Positions 3,646 through 32,000 of a stretch of DNA of 32,000 nucleotides are shown here, piece after piece. Location: contig NZ_LN649255.1 in NCBI RefSeq assembly GCF_000953295.1, positions 150,001-182,000 on the forward strand, read 5' to 3'. Source of the stretch: Candidatus Portiera aleyrodidarum. GTDB taxonomy: Bacteria; Pseudomonadota; Gammaproteobacteria; Johnevansiales; Johnevansiaceae. The notes beneath the pieces were generated by a model. It was not told the origin of the DNA, did no database searches, and saw only the letters and a program-made list of their open reading frames with translations. How positions within the stretch are numbered: position 1 is the stretch's first letter; every line of letters starts with the position of its first letter. The position numbers were made by a program, and so were the translations under genes.

Positions 3646-4467
3646 TTATAACTTCCTTATAATAATTTTATTGACGGATCGGACGGGACTTGAACCCGTG
3701 TTTTCGGTTCGACAAACCGATATTCTATCCTTCTGAACTACCGATCCTTTTTTGGGTAGTGCAAGATTCGAACTTGCGACCCTCAGTTTGTAAAACTGAT
3801 GCTCTTCCTTCTGAGCTAACCACCCTTGATTTAATAAATTATATAATGCTAAACGAATAATATAATTTGATTCTGGGAGACGTTCTATATCTAAGATTTT
3901 TATATATTTATTTATTTTTTTTATTCTATTTAAATATAAAACTCCTCTTCCTGTACAAACAAATTTTTTTAAAATAATGTTTTTTATATTATTTTTTTTA
4001 TTTATATTTATTTTTTTTTCTTTAATTAAAGATATAGGTATATAATAAAAAAAGTTTTTTTTTAATTCAAAAAAACCTATATTATATATATTTTTTTTTA
4101 TTTTAATAACACTAATTACATACTTATAATTATAATCAAACCATACACCTAAAGCCAGAGCTTTTAATTTTGAAATTTCTAATATTGGGATATTTAATAT
4201 ATATGATATTCCTTTACTTATACATTTTATTATTCTAATACATTTTATATCTCCTATTAATTTCCCATAAATAATATAATTAATTTCTGATAAATTAATT
4301 TTTTTTTTATTTAAAAAATTTTTTAAAAAAATAAAAAATAAAATCTTATTTTTATATATATTTTTTTTATAAAATCCAATTATATTTATAAATTTCTTTT
4401 TTTGAAATTTAAATAAAGATATAGAATAAACATTATAAGTATAATCAATAGATAAAAATATTTTCAT
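3646..4467 (-). CDS. tsaB: tRNA threonylcarbamoyladenosine biosynthesis protein TsaB (YeaZ-like). The ORF lacks its own stop and reads through tRNA-Val and tRNA-Asp.
   Basis: Codons 1-214 (4467-3826) are collinear with TsaB. MKIFLSIDYT matches ILAIDTAT, LSEINYIIYGK..IR matches LTDI.ALAYGRGPGSFTGVR, and the tail is LPESNYIIRLALYNLLNQG. The first in-frame stop is TAA at 3646-3648. The remaining 59 codons are encoded by the two tRNA genes and the rpsF leader. Confidence 0.7.
   Translation of the reverse strand: MKIFLSIDYTYNVYSISLFKFQKKKFINIIGFYKKNIYKNKILFFIFLKNFLNKKKINLSEINYIIYGKLIGDIKCIRIIKCISKGISYILNIPILEISKLKALALGVWFDYNYKYVISVIKIKKNIYNIGFFELKKNFFYYIPISLIKEKKININKKNNIKNIILKKFVCTGRGVLYLNRIKKINKYIKILDIERLPESNYIIRLALYNLLNQGWLAQKEEHQFYKLRVASSNLALPKKGSVVQKDRISVCRTENTGSSPVRSVNKIIIRKL
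3652..3658 (-). promoter_or_regulatory. Shine-Dalgarno site of rpsF (AAGGAAG)
   Basis: AAGGAAG on the minus strand, 8 nt upstream of the rpsF ATG (3643). It lies inside the last codons of the tsaB read-through ORF. Confidence 0.5.
3675..3747 (-). tRNA. tRNA-Asp (anticodon GUC)
   Basis: I folded the cloverleaf by hand. Acceptor GGATCGG/CCGATCC, anticodon stem TCGGT/ACCGA with loop TT-GTC-GA, T-arm ACGGG-TTCAAGT-CCCGT. No encoded CCA. Confidence 0.9.
3753..3825 (-). tRNA. tRNA-Val (anticodon UAC)
   Basis: Acceptor GGGTGGT/ACTACCC, anticodon stem TCAGT/ACTGA with loop TT-TAC-AA, T-loop TTCGAAT. Separated from tRNA-Asp by 5 nt. No encoded CCA. Confidence 0.9.
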
Positions 4468-15964: not shown

Positions 15965-17056
15965 TTATAACATATATTTATCTTTAAAAGAATTTATTTT
16001 TTTTGATATATTTTTTATTATTTTTAAAAAAAAATATTTTTTTAATGAAATATTTTTTATTTTTTTAAAAAATTGATTAATGATACTTAATAAAATTAAA
16101 TTTTTTGCGATTTCTTTTTTTATACCTCTAGTTCTTAAATAAAAAATATAATCTTTATTTATTTTTCCTGTAACTGTGCTATGTGTACAAAATACATCTT
16201 TTGATTTAATTTTTAATTTTGGATTTGTTTTAATAATAGAATTATTAGATAATAAGATATTATTATTTTTTTGAATTCCATATACATTTTTTATATTATT
16301 TCTTATCATAATATAACAATTAAAAATACCTTTACCATTATTATCTATTATTCCTTTAAAATCTATATTTGAACTTGTAAAGTTATAATTATGATTAATA
16401 ATTATATTATTTTTTATAAAATTTTTATATTTAGGATAAAACAACCCTAATAATATACATTTACTATACTTTTTATTTAAATTTATTATTAATTTATTAT
16501 ATAATAAATAACAAAATAAATTTATATTATAAAAATAATATTTACTAAATTTTTTTTGATTTACAATCATATTTGACAGATGAATATCTAAGATATTTAA
16601 TTCTTCTAACTTATAAAAGTCTATTTTTGTATTATTATTTATATTTATTTCAAAAAATATATTATTTATATTTTTTATATTATTTTTATTTATATAATGT
16701 TCTATTATTTTAATATTTATATTTTTTTCAATATAAATTAATATTTTTAAATTATTTTTTTTTATATAAATTTTTTTATTTGATATATATAAAAAATATA
16801 TTGGTTTTTTTATTTTTATATTCGATTTAATATAAAGTATTAAGCCATTAAATCTATTTAATTTTATAAAACCTTGTTTTATTTTATATTTAATATTATT
16901 TAATATAATATTTTTTAAATAAATTATTTCTATCCCATATAATTTATTTATAGTTGAATATTTTTTTGATAATCTGCCATCTATAAAAACTATCAAATAT
17001 GCATCAATATTTAAAATACTTTTTTTTATATTACTAAACATATTTTTCATAACCAA
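15965..17056 (-). CDS. sufD: Fe-S cluster assembly protein SufD (highly diverged)
   Basis: Lies between sufC and sufS. The C-terminus KSKDVFCTHSTVTGKINKDYIFYLRTRGIKKEIAKNLIL matches the SufB/SufD family motif (DV.C.H..T.G..D....FYL.SRGI). The ORF-track start is TTG. ATG codons at 17050 or 17041 are more likely starts. Confidence 0.75.
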   Translation of the reverse strand: MVMKNMFSNIKKSILNIDAYLIVFIDGRLSKKYSTINKLYGIEIIYLKNIILNNIKYKIKQGFIKLNRFNGLILYIKSNIKIKKPIYFLYISNKKIYIKKNNLKILIYIEKNINIKIIEHYINKNNIKNINNIFFEININNNTKIDFYKLEELNILDIHLSNMIVNQKKFSKYYFYNINLFCYLLYNKLIINLNKKYSKCILLGLFYPKYKNFIKNNIIINHNYNFTSSNIDFKGIIDNNGKGIFNCYIMIRNNIKNVYGIQKNNNILLSNNSIIKTNPKLKIKSKDVFCTHSTVTGKINKDYIFYLRTRGIKKEIAKNLILLSIINQFFKKIKNISLKKYFFLKIIKNISKKINSFKDKYML

Positions 17057-17787: not shown

Positions 17788-19215
17788 TTATCCTAAAGAA
17801 CCTTCTAAAGTTATTTCTAATAAAGATTCTGCTTCAACTGCAAATTCCATTGGTAAATTTTGAAATACATCTTTACAAAACCCATTAACTATCAGATTTA
17901 TAGTATCTTCTTTTTTTATTCCTCTTTGCATACAATAAAAAATTTGATCTTTATTTATTTTATAAGCTGTCGCTTCATGTTCTAATATCGATGTTTTATT
18001 TTTTATATTTTGATAAGGGATAGTATATATGATACTATTATTGCCTATTATTAATGAATCACATTGGGTATAATTTCTTGATTTGATAGAATTTTTTGTT
18101 ATTTTTACTAAACCTCTATACGCTTGTTTTGATTTTCCAATTGCTATGCCTTTCGCTATTATCGTTGATTTAGTATATTTACCAACATGAATCATTTTTG
18201 TCCCAGTATCTGCTATTTGTTTATTTTTAGTTATAGTTACTGAATAAAATTCCCCCTTAGAATTATCTCCTTTAAGTATACAAGAAGGATATTTCCATGT
18301 AATGGCTGAACCTATTTCTAATTGTATCCAACTAATTCTAGATCTCAAACCATTACATAATCCACGTTTAGTTACAAAATTATAAATACCGCCTATACCT
18401 TTTTCATTACCTGGATACCAATTTTGTACTGTAGAATATTTTATATAACTATCTTCAAAAGCTATTAATTCTACTACAGCAGCATGTAATTGATTTTCAT
18501 CATAAATTGTTGCAGTGCATCCTTCCAAATATGAAACACTTGATCTTTTTTCACATATAATTAATGTTCTTTCAAATTGTCCTGTCTTATTAGTATTCAT
18601 TCTAAAATAAGTAGATAATTCAATAGGACATTTTATGCCTTCCGGTATAAAAACAAAAGTTCCATCTGTAAAAACTGCTGAATTTAACGCTGAAAAATAA
18701 TTATCATCTTGCCGAACAACAGAACCTAAATATATTTTTATTATATAAGAATATTTTTTTATTGCTTCTGAAATAGAACAAAAAATAATTCCTAAGTTAT
18801 ATAATTTTTCTTTATAAGTAGTAGCAATTGATACAGAATCAAATACTGCATCTACTGCTATTCCTTTAATTTTATTATTTTCATATAAATTTACACCTAA
18901 TTTTTTATAGGAATATAAGAATTTTTTATTTAAATATTTTTTTTTTGGAGAACTAAAAAAAGAAATTTCTTTATAATTTATTTTAGGTGTTTTAAATATA
19001 GCCCAAAAAGGTGGTTTCATATTTAACCATTTATAATAAGATCTTAATCTCCATTTTAACATCCAGTTTGGTTCTTTTTTATATTTTGATATATTATTTA
19101 TTATTTTTTTATTTAATCCAGGTAATTGTATATTACAATCTATATTTATTTTAAAACCATGTTTATATTTTTTTTTATATAATTTTTTTAAAATCTTATT
19201 ATTTGTATTTATCAA
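17788..19215 (-). CDS. sufB: Fe-S cluster assembly scaffold SufB
   Basis: 475-aa ORF collinear with SufB. Contains EPNWMLKWRL, AVFTDGTFVFIP, TGQFERTLII, NWYPG and a HEAT.. region. TTG start at 19215. Confidence 0.95.
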   Translation of the reverse strand: MINTNNKILKKLYKKKYKHGFKINIDCNIQLPGLNKKIINNISKYKKEPNWMLKWRLRSYYKWLNMKPPFWAIFKTPKINYKEISFFSSPKKKYLNKKFLYSYKKLGVNLYENNKIKGIAVDAVFDSVSIATTYKEKLYNLGIIFCSISEAIKKYSYIIKIYLGSVVRQDDNYFSALNSAVFTDGTFVFIPEGIKCPIELSTYFRMNTNKTGQFERTLIICEKRSSVSYLEGCTATIYDENQLHAAVVELIAFEDSYIKYSTVQNWYPGNEKGIGGIYNFVTKRGLCNGLRSRISWIQLEIGSAITWKYPSCILKGDNSKGEFYSVTITKNKQIADTGTKMIHVGKYTKSTIIAKGIAIGKSKQAYRGLVKITKNSIKSRNYTQCDSLIIGNNSIIYTIPYQNIKNKTSILEHEATAYKINKDQIFYCMQRGIKKEDTINLIVNGFCKDVFQNLPMEFAVEAESLLEITLEGSLG

Positions 19216-19226
19216 AATTCTAATCT

Positions 19227-19384
19227 CTAAATATTATTTTTTAATATAATAGTATCAGTTCTTACAGGTCCAGTAGATATCCCTATTTCATTTTCTATAC
19301 CTTTAGTAGGTTTGATTTCTTTATCTCTAACCCTGTGTCCCTTTACTTATGTCTTCCTATTATTACTATATTTTTACCAATCAT
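19227..19384 (-). pseudogene. purA: Relic of adenylosuccinate synthetase (purA): N-terminal and C-terminal codons only, in different frames
   Basis: The ATG at 19384 gives MIGKNIVIIGRHK*, compared with PurA MGKNVVVLGTQWGDEGKGK. A second frame (19346-19230) gives ..IKPTKGIENEIGISTGPVRTDTIILKNNI*, compared with the PurA C-terminus ..[28 protein letters not shown]. It lies directly downstream of hisZ, as in the canonical hisZ-purA arrangement. Confidence 0.75.
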
Positions 19385-19406
19385 ATTTTTCTTAATTTTA
19401 TTTTTT

Positions 19407-20588
19407 TTATAATGATATTACTTGCCATTCTTTATTTATCAAACATAATTTTCTATTACAATTATTTTCATTTAAATTAATAATTTGATTTGGTAATTCT
19501 TGTATTACTTTTTCACCATAAAATCTTAATTCCTCAATTTTTTGTTTTAATTTTAAATCATCTAAATCTGGAGCCCAGATTCCTTCTATATTATTTTTTT
19601 TTTCATTTAATAATGTCAATAAATTTAAATCCATAGTACAACCCGTCGAAGGTCTTTTTTTTCCATAATTTTTTCCAATATCATATCTACCTCCTTTAGC
19701 TATAGATTGTACAATTCCTGATACATAAACTGTAAATATTATACCATTATGATATTGATAACCTTTAAAATCAGACAAATCAAAATATATTGATATATTT
19801 TTATAATTTTTCTTAATAAATTTATATATAATTATTAACTGATCCAAAGCAATTTTAATATCTTCCAGAAAGGATATTTTTTTATATGCTGATTTAAGCA
19901 TATTAAAATCACCATGTAATCTTGGTAATATTTTTAATATTTTACTTATATTTAAATCTATATTTATTTTTTTTATTATATTTTCAACATCTGTATATGA
20001 TTTATTTTCTATTGATTCAAATAAAATATTTAAATATTCTTTTTCTATTTTAGATTTTTTTATTAATATCCTATATATACCTAGGTGCCCAAAAGATAAA
20101 TTTATTTTTTTTGCTCCAGATAATCTTAAACTTTTAATAGTAAGATTTATTATTTCTATATCTGCTTCAATCCCAATATAACCTAATAATTCTATGCCAA
20201 CTTGTATAGGATTTCTTCCTAAATCATTTTGTTCCTCAACTGTAAAAGCTCTAAAAACATTTGTACAATAACATATTCTATATGGACCTTGATTTTTTAA
20301 TATACGAGAATCTAACCTTGCAATTTGTGGAGTTGAATCTGCACTTAAACCAATTAATTTCCCACTTAATGTATCTATTAATTTGAATGTCTGTAATTCT
20401 AAATCAGATCCTACATTATTTAATAATGTTTCTAAATATTCGATTTGTGTAGTAATAACAAAATTATAACCATATTTATAATATAAATCTAATAAATCTC
20501 TTCTTGTTTTTTCTAATTTTATTGCTTGATTTGGTAAGATTTCATTTATCCCATCCGGTAATAAAAAAGTTTTCATAATTTTTTTCAT
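19407..20588 (-). CDS. hisZ: ATP phosphoribosyltransferase regulatory subunit HisZ (HisRS paralogue)
   Basis: 393-aa class-II aaRS-like ORF with LLPDGINEILP, TFKLID..GKLIGLSADSTPQIARLD and GGRYD. It lacks an anticodon-binding domain. A genuine hisS lies elsewhere in the window. It sits upstream of the purA relic. Confidence 0.8.
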   Translation of the reverse strand: MKKIMKTFLLPDGINEILPNQAIKLEKTRRDLLDLYYKYGYNFVITTQIEYLETLLNNVGSDLELQTFKLIDTLSGKLIGLSADSTPQIARLDSRILKNQGPYRICYCTNVFRAFTVEEQNDLGRNPIQVGIELLGYIGIEADIEIINLTIKSLRLSGAKKINLSFGHLGIYRILIKKSKIEKEYLNILFESIENKSYTDVENIIKKINIDLNISKILKILPRLHGDFNMLKSAYKKISFLEDIKIALDQLIIIYKFIKKNYKNISIYFDLSDFKGYQYHNGIIFTVYVSGIVQSIAKGGRYDIGKNYGKKRPSTGCTMDLNLLTLLNEKKNNIEGIWAPDLDDLKLKQKIEELRFYGEKVIQELPNQIINLNENNCNRKLCLINKEWQVISL

Positions 20589-20610
20589 AATTTTATATTA
20601 TTTATTTTTA

Positions 20611-21555
20611 TTATATATTATATTTTTTTATCCAATATCTTGAAATATTACTTTTTAATAAATATATGAAATAATCACTTATTTTTGGATTACAAGCATC
20701 TAACCAAAAAGCATCATTAAATTTACGTAACCATAATTTTTGTTTTTTTGCTAAATTTCTATTAGCAGCTAATAATTTTTCTTTTAATATAAAAAAATTA
20801 TATTTCCCATCAATATATTCCCAAACTTGACGATAACCTATACTTTGCATAGCTGGTAATTCCAAATACATATTTTTCATATTTTTTAAAAATTCTACTT
20901 CTGTAATCAAACCACTTTCTAACATAAAATTTAACCTAAAAAAAATATTTTTATATAAAATATCTTTATTATTATGTGTTACTATAAATTTTATTACCTC
21001 ACATGGAAAATTTTCTTTATTTTTTTTTTGCCAAAAAAAATTAATAAATTTATTAGTATTTAAATATACTTCTAAAAATCTTTTATTTCTATAAATATCA
21101 TTATTATTTATTTCTTTTTTTATAAATTTATTTTTTTTAAATATTTTTTTTAATAATAAAAAATAATATTTATCATAATGTTCTATTTTATATTTTAAAA
21201 CCGGTATTTTAGCAATTCCTTCCAATAAAATATTAAAATAAAACATAGAACCACCAACTAATATTGGAATTTTTCCAGAAGTACTAATTTTTTTCATTGC
21301 TTTTAATGCATCATTTCGAAAATTCCAAACTGAATATATTTCATAAGGATATCTTATATCTATTAATTCATGATATATCTTTTTAGGTTTTGCTGTACCG
21401 ATATTCATATATCTATAAACCATAGCTGAATCAACACTAATTAATTCACAATTTAATAACTTTTTTAATTTTATAGCTAATTCTGTTTTTCCTGATGCAG
21501 TTGTCCCCATTAAAAAAATAGCAATTGGTTTTTTATTATATATTTTCATAATCAA
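20611..21555 (-). CDS. miaA: tRNA dimethylallyltransferase MiaA
   Basis: Contains the P-loop LMGTTASGKTELAI, DSAMVYRYMNIGTAKP, GGSMFY, and QSIGYRQ. The ORF-track start is TTG at 21555. The ATG at 21549 is the more likely start. Confidence 0.9.
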   Translation of the reverse strand: MIMKIYNKKPIAIFLMGTTASGKTELAIKLKKLLNCELISVDSAMVYRYMNIGTAKPKKIYHELIDIRYPYEIYSVWNFRNDALKAMKKISTSGKIPILVGGSMFYFNILLEGIAKIPVLKYKIEHYDKYYFLLLKKIFKKNKFIKKEINNNDIYRNKRFLEVYLNTNKFINFFWQKKNKENFPCEVIKFIVTHNNKDILYKNIFFRLNFMLESGLITEVEFLKNMKNMYLELPAMQSIGYRQVWEYIDGKYNFFILKEKLLAANRNLAKKQKLWLRKFNDAFWLDACNPKISDYFIYLLKSNISRYWIKKYNI

Positions 21556-23222
21556 CGTTTACGTAAAAATAAATTATCTAGTTTCTTATTAGAAATTTTA
21601 ATCCAAGTGGGTCGGCCATGATTACAAATTTTTATATTATTTGTTAATTCCATTTCACGTAAGAATGAATTCATTTCTATGATTGTTAATTTTTTATTTG
21701 ATCGTATACTATTATAACAAGAATATTTTATAAAAATTTTCTTTAAGTTATTTAATATATTTTTCTCAGAATCAATAATTTTTAATTTTTCAAAAATTTT
21801 TTTAATTATTAAATAAATATTTATATTTTTTAAAAAATAATTAGGTATTTCTTTTATTAAAATTATATTTGAATTTATTATTTCTAACGTTATTCCTAAT
21901 TTTAAAAAAATTTTTTGGTTTTTTTTTATTAAATAAATTAATTCATTATCTAATTTTAAATTTATAGGAAATAATAATTTTTGTTTTAAAGTTTTATTAT
22001 TAAATTGTTGTTTTTTTATTTTTTCATAAATCATTCTTTCATGAGCCGCATGTATATCTACAAGAATTAAACCTTCTTTATTTTGTGATATAATAAATTT
22101 TTCTTTATATTGACCTATAGCAAATCCTAAATAATTTTTATTATTTATTTTTTCTAAATTTAAATTTTCTTTTTTTTGATTTTTTTTTATTTTATTATTT
22201 TTTAATTTACAATTACTTTTTAATAAATTATAAATATTTTCATAAATAAAATTACTTATTATTTTTTTATTTACAAAATTAACTTTATACTTATTAGGAT
22301 GTACATTTATATCTAACATACTTTTTTTTATACTTATATATAAAATATATGATGGTTTTAAACCTTTAAACATAGTTTCATTATAAGCATTTAATATAAT
22401 TTTTTTTAAAAAAGGATCTTTTATTATTCTTCTATTTATAAAAATATATTGTTTATTTTTTCCAAAAATATAATTTGGTAAAATAAACCATCCTATAATT
22501 TTTATTTGATTATATTTATCAAGTTTATTTATAAACAAACTATTTTTTATAAAATTTTTACCAAAAATATTACTAATTCTATTTCGACATTCATTTATAT
22601 TTAAACAAGGTAATAATTTATATATATTTTTTTTATTTATAAAAGTCCAACAAATATCAAAACTTGATAAAACTAAATTATAAAACATTTCAACAATTTT
22701 ATTTTTTTCAATTCTATCACTAGATAAATTATTTAATTTTATAGGATTATTATAAAATAAATCACTTACAGATACAGTCGTACCTTTCAAATGTGGATAA
22801 GGAAAAATATCTATTCTTCCAAAATTTTTAGATATTCCATATCCTTTATAAGTTTCATTATAAGGATTAGATAATAAAGAATAATTAGATATTGATCCTA
22901 TTGCTGATAAAGCTTCACCTCTAAAACCTAATGTTTTAATATTATTAATCTCATAAAAATTACTTATTTTACTTGTTGCATTTTTTAAAAATACTAATTT
23001 TAAATCATCTTGATTTATTCCACAACCATTATCAACAACTTTTATTAATTTTTTCCCCCCTTTTTCTATATTTATTTTTATATTTTTACTTCCAGCATCT
23101 ATAGAATTTTCAACTAATTCTTTTAAAACATATGATGGATCTTTAATAAGTTCACCAGCTGAGATTTTATTTATTAAATGTTTATTTAGTATTTTTATTC
23201 TATTAAAGTTTTTTTCAATCAT
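21552..23222 (-). CDS. mutL: DNA mismatch repair protein MutL (endonuclease-type C-terminal domain)
   Basis: GHKL ATPase motifs are ELVENSIDAG, DNGCGI and GFRGEAL. C-terminal motifs are DIHAAHERMIYE, SCYNSIRSNKKL, CNHGRPTW and FLRKR. TGA stop at 21552-21554. Confidence 0.9.
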   Translation of the reverse strand: MIEKNFNRIKILNKHLINKISAGELIKDPSYVLKELVENSIDAGSKNIKINIEKGGKKLIKVVDNGCGINQDDLKLVFLKNATSKISNFYEINNIKTLGFRGEALSAIGSISNYSLLSNPYNETYKGYGISKNFGRIDIFPYPHLKGTTVSVSDLFYNNPIKLNNLSSDRIEKNKIVEMFYNLVLSSFDICWTFINKKNIYKLLPCLNINECRNRISNIFGKNFIKNSLFINKLDKYNQIKIIGWFILPNYIFGKNKQYIFINRRIIKDPFLKKIILNAYNETMFKGLKPSYILYISIKKSMLDINVHPNKYKVNFVNKKIISNFIYENIYNLLKSNCKLKNNKIKKNQKKENLNLEKINNKNYLGFAIGQYKEKFIISQNKEGLILVDIHAAHERMIYEKIKKQQFNNKTLKQKLLFPINLKLDNELIYLIKKNQKIFLKLGITLEIINSNIILIKEIPNYFLKNINIYLIIKKIFEKLKIIDSEKNILNNLKKIFIKYSCYNSIRSNKKLTIIEMNSFLREMELTNNIKICNHGRPTWIKISNKKLDNLFLRKR

Positions 23223-23229
23223 AAGATTT

Positions 23230-23655
23230 TTATTTTATATATTTATTTAAATAATATAATTTATATAATTTTATATTTCCTAAAAATAAATTTATTAATA
23301 AATTTATTTTATAAATTTTTTTATATTTTTTTAAATATATATATTTTTTTATTCTTATAAAATTATATATATATAATTTTTTTAAATATATATATTTAAT
23401 AATTTGTATTTTATTTATCTTTTTTTTCAAAATATATATTTTTTTATATTTGATAAAATATATATCAATATTAAAAATATTATTTTTTTTTAATAAATTA
23501 TAATTAATTAAAATTTTTTTTATAAGTTTTATTTTTTTTATATTTCCTAAAATATATATTTTTTTTAAATTTTTTAAATTTATATTAAATATTTTTTTTA
23601 TAATATATTTTTCACTTAATTTTAGTTTATTTATTGGAAATAAAATTTTTTTCAT
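23230..23655 (-). CDS. Hypothetical 141-aa K/I/Y/N-rich protein, possibly a degenerate TsaE (YjeE)
   Basis: A 141-codon ORF with no stops is unlikely by chance in DNA this AT-rich. It lies immediately upstream of mutL, where tsaE(-amiB) sits in many proteobacteria. [19 protein letters not shown] aligns positionally to TsaE [20 protein letters not shown], and IFNIDIYFI aligns to VYHFDLYRL. There is no other recognisable similarity. Confidence 0.35.
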
Positions 23656-25480
23656 TTTTATATATTTTTCTTATAGCACCTGTATCAGCAGACCTTGCAA
23701 AATATGAATATATTTTTAAAGCTTTTGTTATTATTCTATTCCGATTATTTTTTGGTTTCCATAAATTTTTTTTATATAATTTATTCATTTTATTTCTACG
23801 ATTAATTAATCTATTTTTATTAATTAATAAATTTATATATCTTTTATTTATATTAATACTAATTAAATCATCATTTTTTATTAAACCTATATTCCCTCCT
23901 GAAGCAGCTTCAGGCGAGACATGTCCAATTGATAAACCAGACGTCCCACCAGAAAATCTTCCATCTGTTAATAAAGCACAAAATTTATCTAATTTTTTAT
24001 ATTTCAAATAAGAAGTAGGATATAACATTTCTTGCATTCCTGGTCCCCCTTTAGGACCTTCATAACATATAATTAATATATCCCCTTTCTTTATTTCATT
24101 ATTTAATATACTTTGAACTGCTAATTCTTGTGAATTAACAACTTTAGCTCTACCTTTAAATTTTAAAATTTTTTTATTTACTCCTGCTGTTTTTACAACA
24201 CATCCATTTTTAGCGATATTTCCAAATAATATTGCTAATCCGCCATCTTTAGAATAACAATATTTTTTCTTACGAATACAACCATTTTTTCTATCTAAAT
24301 CTAAAGGCCATTTATTATTTTGATAATAAGATTTATTTGTTATAATTCGACCTGGAGCTGCTTGATAAAAATTTAATATATTTTTATCAAATGAATACAT
24401 AATATCCCACTTATATAATGCTTCTTTTAATGTTTTACTATATATAGTAGGAACAAATGTATTTAATAAATTTAATTTATTTAATTCCCCTAAAATTCCA
24501 AATACCCCACCAGCTCTATGAAAATCTTCAATAAAATATTTTTTTGTATTAGGAGATAATTTACATAATTGTGGTACTTTAGTTGATAATTTATCTATAT
24601 TTTTTAATTTAAATTTTATATTTGCTTCTTTTGCTATGGCTAATAAATGAAGTATTGTATTTGTTGAACCACCCATAGCGATATCCATTATTATTGAATT
24701 TTCAAATGATTCTTTTAAACATATATCTAACGGTAAAATTTTTTCATTATTTTTATAAAATTTATTTGTTATTTCTACAATTTTTTTTCCTACTTTATTA
24801 AATAATAATTTCCTATTTACATGAGTTGATAATAAAGTTCCATTACCTGGAAATGCTAATCCTAAAACTTCTAATAAACAATTCATGGAATTTGCAGTAA
24901 ACATCCCAGAACAACTTCCACAAGTTGGACAAGCATTTTTTTCTATTTCTAATATTTTTTTACTATTTTTAGTTTTTGATCCACTTATAATAATAGCATC
25001 TACTAAATTAATATTTTTTTCTTTTATTTTTCCTGCTTCCATAGGACCACCTGAAATAAAGATTGTAGGAATATTTAATCTAAAACAAGCTATTAACATA
25101 CCTGGCGTAATTTTATCACAATTAGAAATACATACTAGGGCATCAGCACAATGAGCATTTACCATATATTCAACTGAATCTGCTATAAGTTCTCTAGACG
25201 GTAAAGAATACATCATCCCACTATGTCCCATAGCAATCCCATCATCTATAGCAATAGTATTAAATATTTTAGCATTTCCACCATTTTTTTTTATTGATTT
25301 TTTTATAACTTTTCCTACTTTATCTAAAAGTATATGACCTGGAACAAAATCAGTATAAGAATTTGCAATAGCAATTATTGGTTTATCAAAATCATTATCT
25401 TTCATACCAGTCGCACGCCATAACGCTCTCGACCCTACCATTTTTTTATTTGTAGTTTTATAAGATCTATAATTTTTCAT
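23627..25480 (-). CDS. ilvD: Dihydroxy-acid dehydratase
   Basis: 617-aa ORF, strongly conserved. Contains [59 protein letters not shown], and the C-terminal SADTGAIR. Confidence 0.95.
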
Positions 25481-25502
25481 TTTTTACCTAATAATATTTT
25501 TT

Positions 25503-27815
25503 TTAAAAAACTATTTTTGCTATATCTTTATAATTTTTAACAAAATGAATTTTTATATTTTTTTTTAAATAATTTGGTAAATTTTCAAAATCTATTTTAT
25601 TATCTTTTGGTAATAAAATTTCAAAAATTTCACTTCGTCTTGCTGCTACAATTTTTTCTCTAATACCACCTACTGGTAAAATTTGACCTGTTAATGTAAT
25701 TTCACCAGTCATTGCGAGTTTACTATTTATACTTTTTAATTTAGCTAATGATATTAAAGCTGTTGTCATTGTTACTCCTGCAGATGGTCCATCTTTTGAT
25801 ATTGAACCTTCCGGGATATGTAAATGTATAAAATAATTATTAAAAAATTTTTTATTTATATTATAATAATTAATATTTGCTAATGTATAACTATATGCTA
25901 TATTTGCTGATTCTTTCATTACATTACCTAAGTTTCCTGTAAGTTTTAAGCCATTTTTAAAATTCTGAATTCTAACAGCTTCAATTGGCAAAGTAACACC
26001 ACCTAGAGAAGTCCAAGCCAATCCTGTTACTACTCCAATACCGTTTAATAATTTTTCTTTTTTAAAAAGAGGTGTTCCTAAATAATCTTTTAAATTATTA
26101 ATTGATATATTTATAATATTATTTTTATTTATTAATAATTTAACTACTGATTTACGAACAATCCGATGTAATTGTTTTTCTAAATTTCTAACACCTGCTT
26201 CTCTAGCGTATCCTTCTATAATTTGTTTCAATGCCGCTGATGTAATTTTTATACTTTGTTTTGGTAAATTATCTTTTTTTAATAATTTAGGCCACAAATG
26301 ATTTTTAGCAATCTTATATTTTTCTTCAGATAAATAACCATATAACCTAATAGGTTCCATTCTATCATATAAAGGTATTGGTATAGTATCTGTTTTATTT
26401 GCTGTACATATAAATAATACTTTAGATAAATCTATATGAATATCTAAATAATTATCAAAAAACTCATTATTTTGTTCTGAATCTAAAACTTCTAATAAAG
26501 CAGAAGCTGGATCATTATTATATGTTTGACTTATTTTATCAATTTCATCTAACATAATTACAGGATTTAAAACCTTTGTTTCTTTTAATGCTTGAACAAT
26601 TTTACCTGGCATTGAACTTACATAGGTTCTACGATGCCCTTTGATTTCAGCTTCATCACGTATTCCACCTAATGATATTCTATAAAATTTTCTTCCTAAT
26701 GCATTTGCTATTGATTTGCCGATTGATGTTTTTCCAACTCCTGGAGGACCTATGAATAATAAGATTGAACCTCCTATCGTCCCTTTAAATGTACATTCTG
26801 CTAAAAATTCTATAATTCTTTCTTTTATATCATTTATCCCATCATGATATTTATTTAATAATTTACGTGCATAACTTATATCTATTCGATCTTTAGATAA
26901 AACACCCCATGGTATTTTTGTTAACCAATCTAAATAATTACGAGTTGTACTATATTCTGGGGATCCTATTTCTAAGATTTTTAATTTATTTAATTCCTCT
27001 TTTATCTTTTTTTTAACTTTTTTTGATATTAAAAAGTTTTTTATACGTATTTTAAACTTTTTTATATCATTTATTCTTTCATCTTTTACAATACCTAATT
27101 CTTTTTGTATAAATTTTAATTGTTCTCTTAAAAAAAATTCTCTTTGCCGTTCATGTATTTGTAAATTTACTTTTTGTGATATTTCATTTTGTAACTTAGC
27201 TATTTCTATTTCTTTTCTTAACATTGGTAAAACTAATTGCATTCTATTTAATATAGATAAAGTCTCTAAGATTTTTTGTAATTCTTTTCCTTTATTTGAT
27301 GTTATCGCTGCAGCAAAATCTGTTAAAGGACCTGGATCATTTGGACTAAATCTATTTAAATAATTTTTTAAATCTTCACCATATAAAGGATTAATTGGTA
27401 ATAACTCTTTTATACTATTTATTATTGCAATGGCATAAGCACGTGTTTCATCAGATTCTTTATTTAAAATTTCTTTTGGATATATAACTTCTACAAAAAA
27501 TGGGGGATTTTTTGATATCCAATTTCTTATTTTAAATCTTTTTAAACCTTGAGCTATAAATTGTATTTGATCTCCATCTGTTCGATGAACTTTTACAATA
27601 GTACCTATTAAAGGAAAATCACTCTTATTAAATATTTCTTTATTCTTAACATAAACTAATCCTAAACAATTTTGTTTTGTCTCACCTACTCTTTGTATTG
27701 TTTCAATCCATTTATTTTTATTTATTACTAATGGTTGTATTTGAGCCGGAAAAAATGGCCTATTATTTATAGGAAGTAAATAAATACTTTCTGGCAAGAA
27801 ATCATTTTTAGACAC
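25503..27815 (-). CDS. lon: ATP-dependent Lon protease
   Basis: Contains Walker A GPPGVGKTS, Walker B MLDEIDK, catalytic Ser DGPSAGVTMTTAL, and catalytic Lys in PVGGIREK. GTG start with AAGGA upstream. Confidence 0.95.
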   Translation of the reverse strand: MSKNDFLPESIYLLPINNRPFFPAQIQPLVINKNKWIETIQRVGETKQNCLGLVYVKNKEIFNKSDFPLIGTIVKVHRTDGDQIQFIAQGLKRFKIRNWISKNPPFFVEVIYPKEILNKESDETRAYAIAIINSIKELLPINPLYGEDLKNYLNRFSPNDPGPLTDFAAAITSNKGKELQKILETLSILNRMQLVLPMLRKEIEIAKLQNEISQKVNLQIHERQREFFLREQLKFIQKELGIVKDERINDIKKFKIRIKNFLISKKVKKKIKEELNKLKILEIGSPEYSTTRNYLDWLTKIPWGVLSKDRIDISYARKLLNKYHDGINDIKERIIEFLAECTFKGTIGGSILLFIGPPGVGKTSIGKSIANALGRKFYRISLGGIRDEAEIKGHRRTYVSSMPGKIVQALKETKVLNPVIMLDEIDKISQTYNNDPASALLEVLDSEQNNEFFDNYLDIHIDLSKVLFICTANKTDTIPIPLYDRMEPIRLYGYLSEEKYKIAKNHLWPKLLKKDNLPKQSIKITSAALKQIIEGYAREAGVRNLEKQLHRIVRKSVVKLLINKNNIINISINNLKDYLGTPLFKKEKLLNGIGVVTGLAWTSLGGVTLPIEAVRIQNFKNGLKLTGNLGNVMKESANIAYSYTLANINYYNINKKFFNNYFIHLHIPEGSISKDGPSAGVTMTTALISLAKLKSINSKLAMTGEITLTGQILPVGGIREKIVAARRSEIFEILLPKDNKIDFENLPNYLKKNIKIHFVKNYKDIAKIVF

Positions 27816-27852
27816 TATTTTATGTCCTTTATAATTATATATTGGTAAATTA

Positions 27853-29094
27853 TTATTTATATATTGGGATTTTTTTACAAAGTTTATTAACTTTAATATT
27901 AATTTTTTTTTTTATAATATAAAAATTTTTTTTATTTTTTATATTATCTAATATATCACAAATCCATATAGCTAGATTTTTACATTCTTTTTCTTTAAAA
28001 CCACGTGTTGTTATTGCTGAGGTACATAATTTAATACCAGATGTAATAGCAAGATTTTTTGAATAATTTGAAATAAAAAATATATCTACTAAAATATTAA
28101 TTTTTTTTAAAATATATTTTATATATTTACCTTTAATCCCATATTCTATTAACGATATTAAAAAAAAACTATTTTTTTCATTATTTAATATGATTTCATA
28201 ACCTCTATTAATAAATATCTCAATCATTACTTTTACATTTTTTCTAATTTGTAGTTGATAATTTTTAAAATTTAAATCTAAAGCTTCTTTAAAACATACA
28301 GATTTAGCTACTAAACTATTTTTTTTATAAATACTTTTATTATTAATAAATAAAAAAGAATCAATAATATTACAAATATCTGGATTATTTTTAGATAAAA
28401 TTAATCCCCCAATTGGACCACGTAAATTATTATTAGTTGAAGTAATTACTATATGAGCATAATTTATTGGAGTAGGATATTCATTTATAATAATTAATCC
28501 TGTTATTTTACTAATATCTATTATTAAATAACTATTAATATAATTAGATATTTTTCTAAAAATTGCCCAATCTATATTTAAAATATATTCATATAATATA
28601 ATTTTTATTAATTTGGGTTTATATTTATTTATTAATTCTAATATTTTATTTTTTTTTATTTCATTATTTAATATTTGATATTTTATATATATAATTTTTC
28701 TACCTAAAAAATTATAATGATTTTCAATATCTGAATTATAATGATTAATACTTATACAAATAATTATATCTCCACTATTTGTTAATGCTTTATATATTAA
28801 TTCATTAGCTTCATTATATGAATCAAATATAATATTTGCATAATCACAACCAAACAATTTACAAGCACGTTTTATTGCTAATTTTTCTATATTATTTAGA
28901 TAATATATATTACTTCTATTTTTATTTATTAATTTACAATTTTGTAATTCAATTATTTTTAAACTTGAATAATTAATCGAAGATAATAATTCAATTTTAT
29001 TTTCTTGTAAAAATAATTCTTCTTTCACAAAAGAAAATAATTTTTTATCATATTTTTCAATATTATTAAAAACCATAAAAATTCTCTTATACAT
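27853..29094 (-). CDS. glyA: Serine hydroxymethyltransferase-derived ORF lacking the PLP-binding lysine (probably not catalytic as an SHMT)
   Basis: Collinear with E. coli GlyA along its whole length. Shared stretches include LFGCDYAN, KPKLI, DWA, YAHIV.T.T...L.GP.GGLILSK, FK.YQ.Q, RGYE, TSGI and TRGFKE. The active-site TTTTHKTLAGPRGG reads ITSTNNNLRGPIGG here. Confidence 0.8.
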   Translation of the reverse strand: MYKRIFMVFNNIEKYDKKLFSFVKEELFLQENKIELLSSINYSSLKIIELQNCKLINKNRSNIYYLNNIEKLAIKRACKLFGCDYANIIFDSYNEANELIYKALTNSGDIIICISINHYNSDIENHYNFLGRKIIYIKYQILNNEIKKNKILELINKYKPKLIKIILYEYILNIDWAIFRKISNYINSYLIIDISKITGLIIINEYPTPINYAHIVITSTNNNLRGPIGGLILSKNNPDICNIIDSFLFINNKSIYKKNSLVAKSVCFKEALDLNFKNYQLQIRKNVKVMIEIFINRGYEIILNNEKNSFFLISLIEYGIKGKYIKYILKKINILVDIFFISNYSKNLAITSGIKLCTSAITTRGFKEKECKNLAIWICDILDNIKNKKNFYIIKKKINIKVNKLCKKIPIYK

Positions 29095-29167
29095 TATTCT
29101 AATTTTTTATTAATATATTATATTTATAATAATAAAAATTTTAAATACTTAATTAATATAAAAAATT

Positions 29168-30481
29168 ATGAAAATAATAAAATCTATTAAAGGAATGAAA
29201 GATATTTTACCTAAAAAATCTTTTATTTGGCAATACATAGAAAATAAAATAAAAATTATTTTATATAAATATTCTTATCTAGAAATAAGAACCCCAATAA
29301 TTGAAAAAACAAAATTATTTAATATATCTTTAGGAAAAACAACAGATCTAATAAATAAAGAAATGTATACATTCAAAGATAAAAAAAATAATTCTTTAAC
29401 ATTGAGACCTGAAAATACTACATCTATAATTAGATGTATATTAGAAAATAATATTTTCTTTAAAAATAAAAAACAAAAATTCTGGTATTTTGGACCAATG
29501 TTTAGATATGAAAATACTCAAAATGGAAGGTATCGACAATTTTATCAATTTGGGGTTGAAACATTTAATATGTCAGGTCCTGATATTGATTCAGAAATAA
29601 TTTTAATAACAAATAGAATTTTTAATATCTTAGGAATAAAAAAATATATAACATTAGAAATAAATACTTTAGGAAATAAAAAATCTAGAATAATATATGC
29701 TAATATATTATTTAAATATTTAAAAAAATATAAAAATTATTTAAATAAAAATATATTTTATAAATTATATAAAAATCCCTTACGGTTATTAGATAATAAA
29801 AAAAATAATATAAAATACATATTTAATAATACTCCTAAAATTATAAGCTGTATAGATATAGATTCTATAAAACATTTTGAATATTTAAAAAATATTTTAA
29901 ATTTTACAAATATAAATTATAAAATAAATACAAATTTAGTAAGAGGATTAGATTATTATTCTCGTACTGTTTTTGAATGGACTACAATTTTTTTAGGTAG
30001 TCAAAACACTATTTGTGCTGGAGGAAGATATGATTATTTAATAAAATATTTAATTGGAAAAAATATTCCTGCAATTGGTTTTGCTATAGGTATAGAAAGA
30101 ATAATATTATTATTAGAAAAAATAAAAAAATTACCAATTAATATAAAATTTAAAATAAATATCTTATTTATTATAATTTCAAATGAAAAATATTTAAAAA
30201 TAAACTCAATAAAAATTGCAGAAAAAATTAGAAATGAATTACCTAATTTAATTCTAAAAATTAATTTTTGTAATAAATCTTTAAAAAAACAATTATCTGA
30301 GGCAAATAATAAAGGTATATATATTATATTAATTTATGGTATAAATGAACAGAAAAAAAATAAAATAACTATAAAATATTTATATAAAAGAAAAAAACAA
30401 AACTTATTAAAGTTAAAAAACTTAATAAAAGAACTAAAATTAATATTTTATCATGAATCAAATTATTTCAATTATTGGTAA
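29168..30481 (+). CDS. hisS: Histidine--tRNA ligase
   Basis: Contains the class-II motifs LRPENT, FRYENTQNGRYRQFYQFG, GGRYD and AIGFAIGIERI, plus a C-terminal anticodon-binding domain. Confidence 0.9.
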   Translation: MKIIKSIKGMKDILPKKSFIWQYIENKIKIILYKYSYLEIRTPIIEKTKLFNISLGKTTDLINKEMYTFKDKKNNSLTLRPENTTSIIRCILENNIFFKNKKQKFWYFGPMFRYENTQNGRYRQFYQFGVETFNMSGPDIDSEIILITNRIFNILGIKKYITLEINTLGNKKSRIIYANILFKYLKKYKNYLNKNIFYKLYKNPLRLLDNKKNNIKYIFNNTPKIISCIDIDSIKHFEYLKNILNFTNINYKINTNLVRGLDYYSRTVFEWTTIFLGSQNTICAGGRYDYLIKYLIGKNIPAIGFAIGIERIILLLEKIKKLPINIKFKINILFIIISNEKYLKINSIKIAEKIRNELPNLILKINFCNKSLKKQLSEANNKGIYIILIYGINEQKKNKITIKYLYKRKKQNLLKLKNLIKELKLIFYHESNYFNYW

Positions 30482-31739
30482 AACAAATGTAGGGAAATCT
30501 ACTTTGTTTAATTGTTTAACAAAAAAAAATAATTCAAGAACAAATAATATTCCTTACTTTACTAGAGATAGAAAGTATGGAATATTAAAAATAAAAAATA
30601 AAAATATAAATTTAATAGATACAGCTGCAATTTTGAATGATTTTTTTTCTTATAAAAAAAATAATATAAATTATTCTATTAATAAACAAACCAGAATAGC
30701 TATTCAAGAATCAAAGATAATTTTATTTTTAATAAACTCATATACAAAAATTGATTTGTTTTATAAAAAATTTATCAATTATTTAAAACTAAAAAATAAA
30801 AAAATTATATTCATTATAAATAAAATTGATTATTTTAATAAATATATTATTACTGATTTTTATAAATTTAATTTAAATCATCCTATTTTTATATCTGCTT
30901 TAAAAAAAATAAATATAAAGAAATTATTATTTAATATAAAAAAAAATTTATATAACTATAGAATTTCTATAAAAAATAATAAAAATTTAATTAAGATTTG
31001 TACAATAGGAAAAACAAATGTAGGTAAATCTACATTAATTAATAGTTTATTAAAAGAAACACGTTTAATTATTGATAAAAATCCAGGGACTACAAGAGAA
31101 AATATAAAAATAAAAATAAATTATAAAAATAATTTATTTATTTTAACTGATACTGAAGGAATAGATAAGAATATAAAAAAAAATAAAATATTAAAATTAA
31201 TTAATATATATAATATTATTTTATATATTATTGATGCTAATATAGGATTAGTTGAAATAGATTTATATTTAATAAAAAAAATATTTTTATTAGGTAAATT
31301 TTTAATTTTAATTATTAATAAATGGGATCTTCTAAATATTCATAAAAAAAAATTAATAAAAAATGAATTAAATTTAAAATTAAAAAAATATAAAACTTTC
31401 TTAAGTTTACATTTTATTTCTGCTTTATATTTATATAATATAAAAACTATATTTAATTCTATTGAATATTTTATTTATTTAAAAAATAAAATTTGGTCTA
31501 TTAAAAAATTAACTAATTTAATTAATTTAGCGATAAAAAAAAAACCACCATTAATTTATAAGAATAAAAAAATTAAATTTATATTAGCTAAACAAATAAA
31601 TCAAACTCCAATAAATATTATTATTTTTGGAAACAAAAAAATTAAATGTTTATCAAAAAATTACAAAAAATATTTATTAAATTTTTTTATAAAAAAATTA
31701 AATATAAAAAATATTTTATTAAAAATAACTCTTTTATAA
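30453..31739 (+). CDS. der: Ribosome-biogenesis GTPase Der (EngA), two tandem G domains
   Basis: Two P-loops (IIGKTNVGKSTLFN and TIGKTNVGKSTLIN), two NKxD motifs (INKID, INKWD), and DTAA/DTEG at G3. The start overlaps the hisS 3' end by 29 nt. Confidence 0.9.
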   Translation: MNQIISIIGKTNVGKSTLFNCLTKKNNSRTNNIPYFTRDRKYGILKIKNKNINLIDTAAILNDFFSYKKNNINYSINKQTRIAIQESKIILFLINSYTKIDLFYKKFINYLKLKNKKIIFIINKIDYFNKYIITDFYKFNLNHPIFISALKKINIKKLLFNIKKNLYNYRISIKNNKNLIKICTIGKTNVGKSTLINSLLKETRLIIDKNPGTTRENIKIKINYKNNLFILTDTEGIDKNIKKNKILKLINIYNIILYIIDANIGLVEIDLYLIKKIFLLGKFLILIINKWDLLNIHKKKLIKNELNLKLKKYKTFLSLHFISALYLYNIKTIFNSIEYFIYLKNKIWSIKKLTNLINLAIKKKPPLIYKNKKIKFILAKQINQTPINIIIFGNKKIKCLSKNYKKYLLNFFIKKLNIKNILLKITLL

Positions 31740-31741
31740 GA

Positions 31742-31815
31742 AACGCCCGAGAGGATTTGAACCTCCAACAGTTTGATTCGTAGTCAAAAACTCTATCCAA
31801 TTGAGTTACGGGCGC
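31742..31815 (-). tRNA. tRNA-Arg (anticodon ACG)
   Basis: GCGCCCGTAACTCAATTGGATAGAG... with anticodon stem TTTGA/TCAAA and loop CT-ACG-AA, and T-arm GGAGG-TTCAAAT-CCTCT. The acceptor pairs G1 with U72. Confidence 0.85.
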
Positions 31816-31830
31816 TTTATAAAAAAATTA

Positions 31831-31918
31831 TGGAGAGAGAGGGATTTGAACCCTCGATAGATACTTGATCTATTTTCCTTTAGCAAAGGAACGCCATAAA
31901 CCTCTCGGCCACCTCTCC
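31831..31918 (-). tRNA. tRNA-Ser (anticodon GCU), long variable arm
   Basis: GGAGAGGTGGCCGAGAGG... with anticodon stem TTCCT/AGGAA and loop TT-GCT-AA, a long variable arm, and T-arm GAGGG-TTCAAAT-CCCTC. Confidence 0.9.
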
Positions 31919-31925
31919 AAATTTT

Positions 31926-32000
31926 TTATAGTTCTTCTTTTATATTTTTTTTATCTAAACAAAAAGCTGTATGTAATGAATTTATTGCTAAGTGTACAAA
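31926..32000 (-). CDS. 3' end of an unidentified CDS that continues beyond the window
   Basis: The minus-strand frame is open to the window edge and gives ...FVHLAINSLHTAFCLDKKNIKEEL*, with TAA at 31926-31928. It is too short to identify. Confidence 0.3.
   Translation of the reverse strand, partial: FVHLAINSLHTAFCLDKKNIKEEL

Follow-up and report, generated by a model that had tools for sequence, protein, structure and literature searches.

A serine hydroxymethyltransferase homologue that lacks its Schiff-base lysine is kept under purifying selection in Portiera of Aleurodicus whiteflies

We analyzed a stretch of 32,000 nucleotides (contig NZ_LN649255.1, positions 150,001 to 182,000; the window) from AD-CAI, a strain of Candidatus Portiera aleyrodidarum that lives as primary symbiont in the whitefly Aleurodicus dispersus. 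The AD-CAI genome comprises 290,195 bp (PMC5322561) and is deposited under accession LN649255 (PMC13637331). Within the window lies an open reading frame (ORF) that is homologous along its length to serine hydroxymethyltransferase (SHMT), the product of glyA. Its product has lost the lysine that forms the Schiff base with pyridoxal phosphate (PLP) along with most other active-site residues, and what is new here is a member of the SHMT family that fails the defining catalytic features of that family yet is under selection. We consider it fairly probable that the ORF encodes an SHMT-derived pseudoenzyme, with the SHMT fold but without canonical binding of PLP, substrate, or folate, which selection keeps for a noncatalytic role. 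Degenerate proteins in tiny symbiont genomes are no surprise in themselves. In this genome of about 280 genes, however, the chemistry of an enzyme has been erased and the protein is still selected, so something besides catalysis must pay for it.

The Pfam SHMT profile (PF00464) matched residues 12 to 378 of the ORF product over profile positions 1 to 399 of 399 (E = 5.3e-59), and a PDB search returned E. coli and Salmonella SHMT structures with E values of 1e-73 to 1e-75 (best, 2.5e-75). A sequence-only reading of this DNA had proposed an SHMT homologue collinear with E. coli GlyA, and the match to the full profile and to structures at about 1e-74 bears this out. AlphaFold2 modeled the product with a mean predicted local distance difference test (pLDDT) score of 83.9 and a predicted template modeling (pTM) score of 0.83. 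Based on Foldseek, the predicted fold aligns with E. coli SHMT (PDB 1dfo) at a template modeling (TM) score of 0.85, consistent with the architecture of fold-type I PLP enzymes. The low-confidence stretches of the model (residues 51 to 70, 111 to 130, 251 to 260, and 341 to 350) are the former active-site loops.

The identity of the ORF product to any SHMT does not exceed about 40%, and the product scores 259.7 bits against the NCBIfam SHMT model (NF000586/PRK00011), under the curated naming cut-off of 335. Because of this score, the RefSeq name is hypothetical protein, in AD-CAI as in the sister strain AF-CAI, the Portiera of A. floccissimus; the submitters' original product name was serine hydroxymethyltransferase. 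The annotated product has 407 amino acids and starts at the second methionine (29076). G+C content is about 15% around the ORF and 11 to 29% per kb across the window. A protein scan of a genome contig collection, with no Portiera in it, returned only unrelated SHMTs (from Nonlabens and from a Mycoplasma metagenome-assembled genome, MAG).

We numbered residues as in E. coli SHMT, from an alignment of the ORF product with PDB SHMTs. In place of His228-Lys229-Thr230, the product has three consecutive asparagines (N221-N222-N223). HMMER and MAFFT agree in aligning AHIVITSTNNNLRGPIGG with AHVVTTTTHKTLAGPRGG, and the flanking segments YP.P..YAH and L.GP.GG are identical, leaving no room for an indel to shift the register. 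All 115 full-length SHMT homologues in the alignment have H-K at AD-CAI residues 221 and 222, where the ORF product has N-N. No lysine lies within 11 residues of the Schiff-base position, and the nearest is 12 residues downstream. The loss of Lys229 had been read from the AAT codons at 28434-28426; those coordinates are exact, and an alignment shifted by an indel so as to hide a lysine is ruled out. The change of K229 to N equals AAA to AAT, which is neutral for AT content, and thus AT pressure does not explain it. The ORF product contains 55 other lysines and is very basic.

The other changes reported in the sequence-only reading (the shortened Tyr55-Tyr65 loop, DSYNEAN, INHYNSD, DISK, and SGIK) are all present by alignment (Table 1), with D200 still kept. 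Beyond that list, the FPGGQGGP loop reads FINNKSIY, N347 is replaced by F (F339), S175 by Y, and P258 by I, and all seven family-conserved His residues are gone. Ligand-contact positions for PLP, substrate, and folate are kept in 3 of 22 cases (S35, S97, and D200), compared with 77 of 132 other conserved positions (58%; Fisher p = 1.2e-4). Within the PLP-binding set (G98/S99, H126, S175, D200, A202, H203, T226, R235, Y55', and G262'/G263'), D200 alone is kept, along with S97 next to the G98/S99 loop. The substrate and folate contacts (S35, E57, Y65, R363, N347, L121/L127, and P258) retain only S35. By alignment, the losses cluster in the active site. If any lysine has "migrated" into the pocket, the only conceivable one is K196, at the H203 position. 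With the Schiff-base lysine and 19 of the 22 contacts gone, and the NCBIfam cut-off failed, we agree with the earlier judgment that canonical SHMT chemistry is very unlikely.

This degree of erosion is outside the range of genuine SHMTs in our alignment. The ORF product keeps 80 and loses 74 of the 154 columns that are at least 95% identical in the 115 SHMTs. The most divergent genuine homologue keeps 128 (losing 26), and the AT-rich SHMT of a Donacia beetle symbiont keeps 139. Thus, AT bias and genome reduction alone do not yield such erosion. Among the neighbors, Lon retains its Walker A motif and Ser-Lys dyad, SufS (a fold-type I PLP enzyme) its PLP lysine (H-K) and catalytic Cys, and DapA its K161, Y133, and T44. 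IlvD scored over its equivalog cut-off. The earlier statement that the neighbors keep their catalytic residues thus stands at the level of residues for Lon, SufS, and DapA and at the level of that cut-off for ilvD. NCBIfam cut-offs were passed by RsmA, DnaB, AceE, DapA, DnaX, Gnd, MnmA, SufS, SufB, SufC, HisZ, MiaA, MutL, IlvD, Lon, HisS, and Der, the exceptions being SufD, a short AceF, an ABC ATPase, and two ORFs without a family. Lon is 64 to 67% identical to Lon of free-living Halomonadaceae, well above the ceiling of about 40% for the SHMT homologue. The erosion is largely gene-specific, as had been claimed, but it is not unique to glyA, as SufD and an ORF of 4% G+C are heavily eroded too.

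Two observations concern these neighbors in their own right. A K-to-R change in Lon (GGIREK for GGIKEK) was considered as a catalytic loss and rejected, as the catalytic Lys is the second K, 43 residues past the catalytic Ser, and is retained. SufD (15965-17056, minus strand; 11% G+C) scored 186 bits where the NCBIfam cut-off is 222, with the adjacent SufB, SufC, and SufS passing, and is another candidate protein surviving far under family thresholds.

The AD-CAI and AF-CAI lineages split about 18 Ma ago (95% highest posterior density, 12 to 25 Ma; PMC5322561). The AF-CAI ORF has all 413 codons intact, shares the N-N-N and the H203-to-K change, and differs from the AD-CAI ORF by 5 amino acids and 11 nucleotides, with no indels. 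Changes at codon positions 1 and 2 (5 of 826; 0.6%) are far rarer than at fourfold sites (5 of 70; 7%; Fisher p = 4.7e-4). The ratio of nonsynonymous to synonymous divergence (dN/dS), calculated by the Nei-Gojobori method (NG86), is 0.18, within the range of the neighbors (0.04 to 0.22). We took neutral rates from the fourfold sites of neighboring genes in protein-guided codon alignments, where divergence is 31% at G/C and 7% at A/T. At these rates about 100 differences are expected at positions 1 and 2 and 5 are observed, a ratio of 0.05 that is the same for hisS, der, and lon. When the divergence of intergenic DNA (15 of 613) is used instead, as a conservative floor, about 20 are expected, although such DNA (25% G+C) is no clean neutral reference because tRNA genes sit in those gaps.

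Neutral forward simulation along the AD-AF path, using the fourfold-site matrix, accumulated about 133 substitutions and introduced about 12 premature stops, and the ORF stayed intact in 0 of 5000 runs; at 27% of the rate, the lowest plausible, the probability of an intact ORF was 0.03. Codon-position G+C (GC1/GC2/GC3 = 0.215/0.205/0.041) is akin to that of hisS and mutL. GC1 and GC2 are five times GC3, and thus are not the equalized values of long neutral drift. The ORF therefore lacks the marks of a pseudogene: its frame is undisrupted, its dN/dS is not near 1, and its codon positions are not equalized. The sequence-only reading had argued that a long open frame in DNA this AT-rich implies selection and had proposed comparing dN/dS and K229 in sister strains. 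The argument is upheld by what that comparison gave, a shared N-N-N in an intact frame at a dN/dS of 0.18, and by simulated survival in fewer than 1 of 5000 runs.

The same AD-AF comparison (window 17788-32000 against the AF-CAI sequence L003) showed that per-gene dS tracks G+C, from 0.10 in lon to 0.017 in der, and that A-T transversions are the commonest class of substitution (32 of 73). Given the gap between fourfold rates at G/C and A/T, standard dN/dS under- or overstates constraint unless composition is modeled. Indels between the strains occur in der (EngA; 30453-31739, plus strand, against L003 7341-8642), with 37 gap columns and products of 428 versus 433 amino acids, and sufB has 59 gap columns in the whole-region alignment.

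A deeper lineage extends the comparison. Searching for Lon in Logan assemblies of Sequence Read Archive runs, we found two further Portiera-like Lon sequences, 89% and 86% identical to that of AD-CAI and thus closer to it than Lon of Aleyrodinae Portiera (80 to 81%). One 4.7-kb contig (L004; ERR13328196) starts within an ORF directly upstream of lon that corresponds to the C-terminal 135 codons of the SHMT-like gene. Between AD-CAI and L004, saturation is reached at fourfold G/C sites (89% changed), and 35% of A/T sites have changed. The L004 fragment is open and 73% identical to AD-CAI, with five indels, all in frame. Its dN/dS is 0.45 (lon, 0.14; ilvD, 0.18), a binomial test against neutrality gave p = 0.02, and neutral simulation predicted about 12 stops in 123 codons.

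Constraint within this fragment is uneven. In a patch of the C-terminal domain, 26 of 27 positions are identical between AD-CAI and L004 (AITTRGFKEKECKN[L/I]AIWICDILDNI). The segment beside it, the N347...R363 substrate/folate loop in real SHMTs, has diverged freely with indels and has K for R363 in both lineages. A conserved patch next to a freely varying former active-site loop is the signature of a scaffold that matters and a former active site that does not, and if a functional surface is retained, the patch is the best candidate for it. The comparison suggests that inactivation predates the deep AD-L004 split. Purifying selection acts on the sequence and frame in at least two lineages, and in three for the C-terminal third, and the gene has been kept under such selection for tens of millions of years.

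In L004 (positions 1-411), a 13-bp deletion removes the stop codon used in AD-CAI and AF-CAI, and the ORF runs 8 codons further, ending in a TAG that overlaps the GTG start of lon (TAGTG), which may allow translational coupling. Two other contigs (L005 and L006; Lon, 86% identical) hold 60 bp upstream of lon, too short to show the glyA-like ORF, and further runs with Portiera-like sequence are ERR13328205 and ERR13328207. An exhaustive search of sequence representatives with residues 100 to 290 found no relative nearer than the protein's own cluster.

Table 1. Features of the glyA-like ORF and related elements, in window coordinates
Feature	Position	Strand	Remarks
SHMT-homologous ORF, 413 codons, ATG start	27853..29094	-	Published as glyA; RefSeq, hypothetical protein
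KNRSNIYYLNN for K-YAEGYPGKRYYGG-CEY	28891..28923	-	Nine-residue deletion; Y55 to N, E57 to S, Y65 lost; pLDDT 56-67
DSYNEAN for HSGSQAN, PLP-phosphate loop	28804..28824	-	S97 retained, G98 to Y, S99 to N; alignment
INHYNSD for LAHGGHL/HGGHLTHG region	28729..28749	-	G125 to N, H126 (ring-stacking His) to S, L127 to D; pLDDT 71-74
DISK for DMAH	28507..28518	-	D200 (pyridine-N partner) retained, A202 to S, H203 to K; alignment
ITSTNNNLRGPIGG, counterpart of TTTTHKTLAGPRGG	28405..28446	-	T226 to S, R235 to I; flanking L.GP.GG retained; alignment
Three AAT codons, N221-N222-N223, at E. coli His228-Lys229-Thr230	28426..28434	-	Schiff-base Lys gone
FINNKSIYKKN for FPGGQGGPLMH, phosphate-binding loop from partner subunit	28318..28350	-	pLDDT 63
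DIFFISNYSKNLAITSGIK for SHMT N347-R363 loop	28030..28086	-	N347 to F, R363 to K (SGIR to SGIK); least conserved stretch between Portiera lineages; in-frame indels
AITTRGFKEKECKNLAIWICDILDNIK, C-terminal-domain patch, residues 360-386	27937..28017	-	26/27 positions identical in L004
Spacer, 37 bp, glyA-like ORF to lon	27816..27852	-	Conserved AAAGGACA Shine-Dalgarno-like element
Spacer, 73 bp, between divergent glyA-like ORF and hisS	29095..29167	.	Presumably promoter(s); AD vs AF, 1 substitution
HisZ, catalytically dead HisRS paralogue	19407-20588		Within window; over NCBIfam cut-off

Promoter and terminator scans returned 16 promoter-like sites where 23 were expected; consensus matches are thus not above chance in such AT-rich DNA.

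Other Portiera show what becomes of the locus when the gene goes. In the Portiera of B. tabaci (CP016343; L009 3076-5000), a gene-less spacer of 1,925 bp lies between hisS and lon, with the synteny der-hisS-[ ]-lon-ilvD kept, and tblastn of this spacer found no SHMT similarity (E > 1). The slot is unrecognizable: once selection is released, the gene disappears. Based on the published reconstruction, glyA was lost on the branch to Aleyrodinae (PMC5322561). In a draft Portiera assembly (GCA_902713745.1; L008 1-5000), the five kb upstream of lon are without called genes and without SHMT similarity; this may reflect an unstable, repeat-rich genome, or gene calls may merely not be on record.

What we observe, a homologue of an enzyme family without catalytic residues and with purifying selection after their loss, is what would be expected of a pseudoenzyme. 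We propose that ancestral Portiera would have obtained glycine and one-carbon units from the host, and later from co-symbionts, making catalysis dispensable. Drift would then have replaced nearly all active-site positions, with the scaffold staying constrained, above all at residues 360 to 386, and in Aleyrodinae the gene would have been lost entirely. The protein is presumably expressed, and by analogy we favor a structural or binding role, such as a partner or regulator of another protein, that would be centered on the C-terminal patch. Of the three explanations offered in the sequence-only reading, the pseudoenzyme is supported, and very recent inactivation is refuted. Complementation by host or co-symbiont is compatible with our results and probably explains why catalysis became dispensable; in Aleyrodinae Portiera the loss of glyA is complete, and both Arsenophonus and Wolbachia occur (PMC5322561).

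The main rival, which we judge unlikely though clearly ahead of the remaining ones, is an expressed relic that itself has no function and whose place at the head of a co-directional glyA-lon-ilvD-...-hisZ array keeps it transcribed and translated. Selection would then be indirect, against nonsense mutations that upset the expression of genes downstream and against destabilizing substitutions that leave the product misfolded and costly. The position of the ORF, on the strand of lon and 37 bp upstream of it, with a stop that overlaps the lon start in L004, fits such a relic, as do a dN/dS above that of lon and ilvD, the loss of the gene in Aleyrodinae without obvious replacement, and the extreme genome stasis of non-B. 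tabaci Portiera, with few deletions (PMC5322561). However, polarity favors an open frame and not particular amino acids, yet positions 1 and 2 are about ten times less diverged than fourfold sites, and lon has its own conserved Shine-Dalgarno-like element. Over a divergence that saturates fourfold sites, a costly gene without use should have been lost by simple deletion, as it was in Aleyrodinae. The patch at residues 360 to 386, nearly invariant beside a variable loop, looks site-specific rather than like generic foldability. A relic thus explains the maintenance of the frame better than the site-specific conservation of amino acids.

Neutral decay fares far worse. A plain pseudogene, uninterrupted by chance, would agree with the lost catalytic residues, the RefSeq name, the loss of the gene in related lineages, and the low G+C (15%), but we regard it as scarcely credible, and neutral pseudogenization is effectively excluded. 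Two species that separated about 18 My ago both have an intact ORF, and dN lies far under dS; about 12 simulated stops between AD-CAI and AF-CAI stand alongside about 12 more for the C-terminal third along the L004 path; no indel breaks the frame; GC1 and GC2 exceed GC3 fivefold; and the truly released B. tabaci locus is unrecognizable. Slightly less improbable is a rewired enzyme that would use a relocated K196, bind PLP noncovalently as an external aldimine, or catalyze a PLP-independent reaction. D200 and S97 are kept, H203 is Lys in both strains, migrated catalytic residues are noted in pseudoenzyme reviews (PMC10211241), and PLP is used in the cell, since SufS keeps its PLP lysine. Against such rewiring, none of G98, S99, G262, G263, Y55, H126, T226, H228, or R235 is left, with bulky residues in the place of several, and the substrate-carboxylate Arg, E57, Y65, and the folate Asn347 are gone. 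The pocket loops, moreover, are the low-confidence parts of the model, and one varies by indels between lineages.

Several points weigh against an SHMT-derived pseudoenzyme kept for a noncatalytic role. Aleyrodinae Portiera live without the gene, and some backgrounds can therefore dispense with whatever role it has. The constraint, though real, is modest, as dN/dS toward L004 is 3 to 4 times that of lon and ilvD; the AD-AF comparison rests on 11 differences only, and the L004 fragment does not include the Lys position. The ligand-contact list of 22 positions comes from the E. coli SHMT literature and not from coordinates. AlphaFold confidence is driven by an alignment of genuine SHMTs, on which the fold prediction depends. 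Literature searches turned up neither expression nor protein data on Aleurodicus Portiera, and no partner or ligand; they also found no description of a bacterial SHMT pseudoenzyme or of an inactivation of Portiera glyA.

Santos-Garcia et al. (2015) counted glyA as functional, with "glycine [is] synthesized within Portiera cells," and took its loss, with that of glycine synthesis and folate transformations, to be confined to Aleyrodinae (PMC5322561). Unlike that annotation (PMC5322561), the residue evidence says that the Aleurodicus copies cannot make glycine either. Judged by those residues, Aleurodicus Portiera are almost certainly unable to make glycine or 5,10-methylene-tetrahydrofolate via the glyA-like ORF. 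If the ORF product is not catalytic, glycine and one-carbon units would be supplied by the host, Arsenophonus, or Wolbachia, as in Aleyrodinae; Arsenophonus and Wolbachia of these whiteflies also make PLP and folate (PMC5322561; PMC6167482). The published metabolic map of Aleurodicus Portiera (2015) should be revised.

Two other ORFs in the window deserve mention. The ORF of 4% G+C noted above (23230-23655, minus strand; 141 codons) lies between ilvD and mutL, encodes nearly all K, I, L, N, Y, and F, and has no Pfam or NCBIfam match. It shows 0 differences at positions 1 and 2 between AD-CAI and AF-CAI, where about 23 would be expected if it were neutral, and looks like a real, constrained gene. 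In E. coli, tsaE and amiB lie upstream of mutL-miaA, and a 12-residue segment of this ORF could be a ruined P-loop of TsaE. A second ORF (3646-4467, minus strand; 273 codons) overlaps tRNA-Asp (3675-3747) and tRNA-Val (3753-3825), which makes the 3' portion of it spurious. The stretch from 3828 to 4467 has a weak TsaD-family match (Pfam E = 2e-4, under the cut-off) and may be a degenerate TsaB-like gene.

Lysine-less homologues occur elsewhere. A HMMER search of 1.84 billion representatives with residues 100 to 290 returned, beyond the cluster of the protein itself, no relative closer than 37%, and the Schiff-base lysine was absent in 9 of the 149 next-best matches (the P0325 cluster, P0246, P0256, P0344, P0368, P0380, P0386, P0388, and P0390). 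This sample is biased, because a degenerate query draws degenerate matches, but a recurrent outcome is still suggested by it. The P0325 cluster comprises ten "hypothetical proteins" from Candidatus Hodgkinia cicadicola MAGs, with TTTHESLKGP at the site. P0246 (L007 2008-3270), from a bacterium of 32% G+C whose contig also carries recR, murB, rplA, rplV, rpsC, murG, and fabF, reads STNNTLRGP, the same change of HK to NN. In the alignment, Portiera, Hodgkinia, P0246, and P0256 share degenerate or deleted loops (YAEGYPGKRYYGG, HSGSQAN, HGGHLTHG, GGQGGP, and NKNS.PNDP) that control SHMTs keep. P0380 has a long N-terminal region, hydrophobic and membrane-like in appearance, fused to its SHMT domain.

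The Hodgkinia, P0246, and P0256 proteins are full-length with the lysine replaced, as in Portiera, and are just 27 to 33% identical to the Portiera protein; given this low identity and the unrelated lineages, they are independent events. GlyA was among the abundant proteins of the original Hodgkinia proteome (PMC2704378). We raise tentatively, as something less likely than not, that SHMT-fold proteins without the lysine and with an erased active site, in Portiera of Aleurodicinae, Hodgkinia of cicadas, the bacterium of 32% G+C, and others from metagenomes, are recurrent, independently evolved, selected pseudoenzymes with a shared noncatalytic job in reduced genomes. Such a job, for example as a scaffold, regulator, or nucleic acid binder, may outlive the metabolic role. 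If the recurrence is true, metabolic maps of tiny symbiont genomes based on presence and absence systematically over-count pathways, and if it is repeatable, dead enzymes are a class to screen for before trusting pathway reconstructions from gene presence.

Compared with GlyA (EC 2.1.2.1; 1DFO), the Portiera protein is collinear over its full length and retains D200, S35, S97, and the L.GP.GG and TTRGFKE segments. Unlike GlyA, it has no Schiff-base Lys, carries other residues at 19 of 22 contacts, is nine residues shorter in the Y55-Y65 loop, and fails the NCBIfam cut-off. Structures of SHMTs with an engineered Lys mutation (PDB 1yjs and 1yjy) were among the structure matches, and such mutants are reportedly essentially inactive in steady state. 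A parallel to an enzyme without its chemistry is encoded in the same window. HisZ, which regulates HisG, is likewise derived from an enzyme, has lost catalysis, and is selected; its role is noncatalytic protein binding, and it persists in a 290-kb genome. Unlike HisZ, which was born by duplication and has a defined partner and function, the Portiera ORF is a sole gene copy gone dead. HisZ is a conceptual precedent for a noncatalytic role of the ORF product. In eukaryotes, SHMT1 is an RNA-binding protein. The PLP-free SHMT2 dimer is a scaffold for BRISC (PMC10211241), so the SHMT fold can serve a role without PLP chemistry. The active sites of eukaryotic SHMT1 and SHMT2 are intact, whereas that of the Portiera protein is lost.

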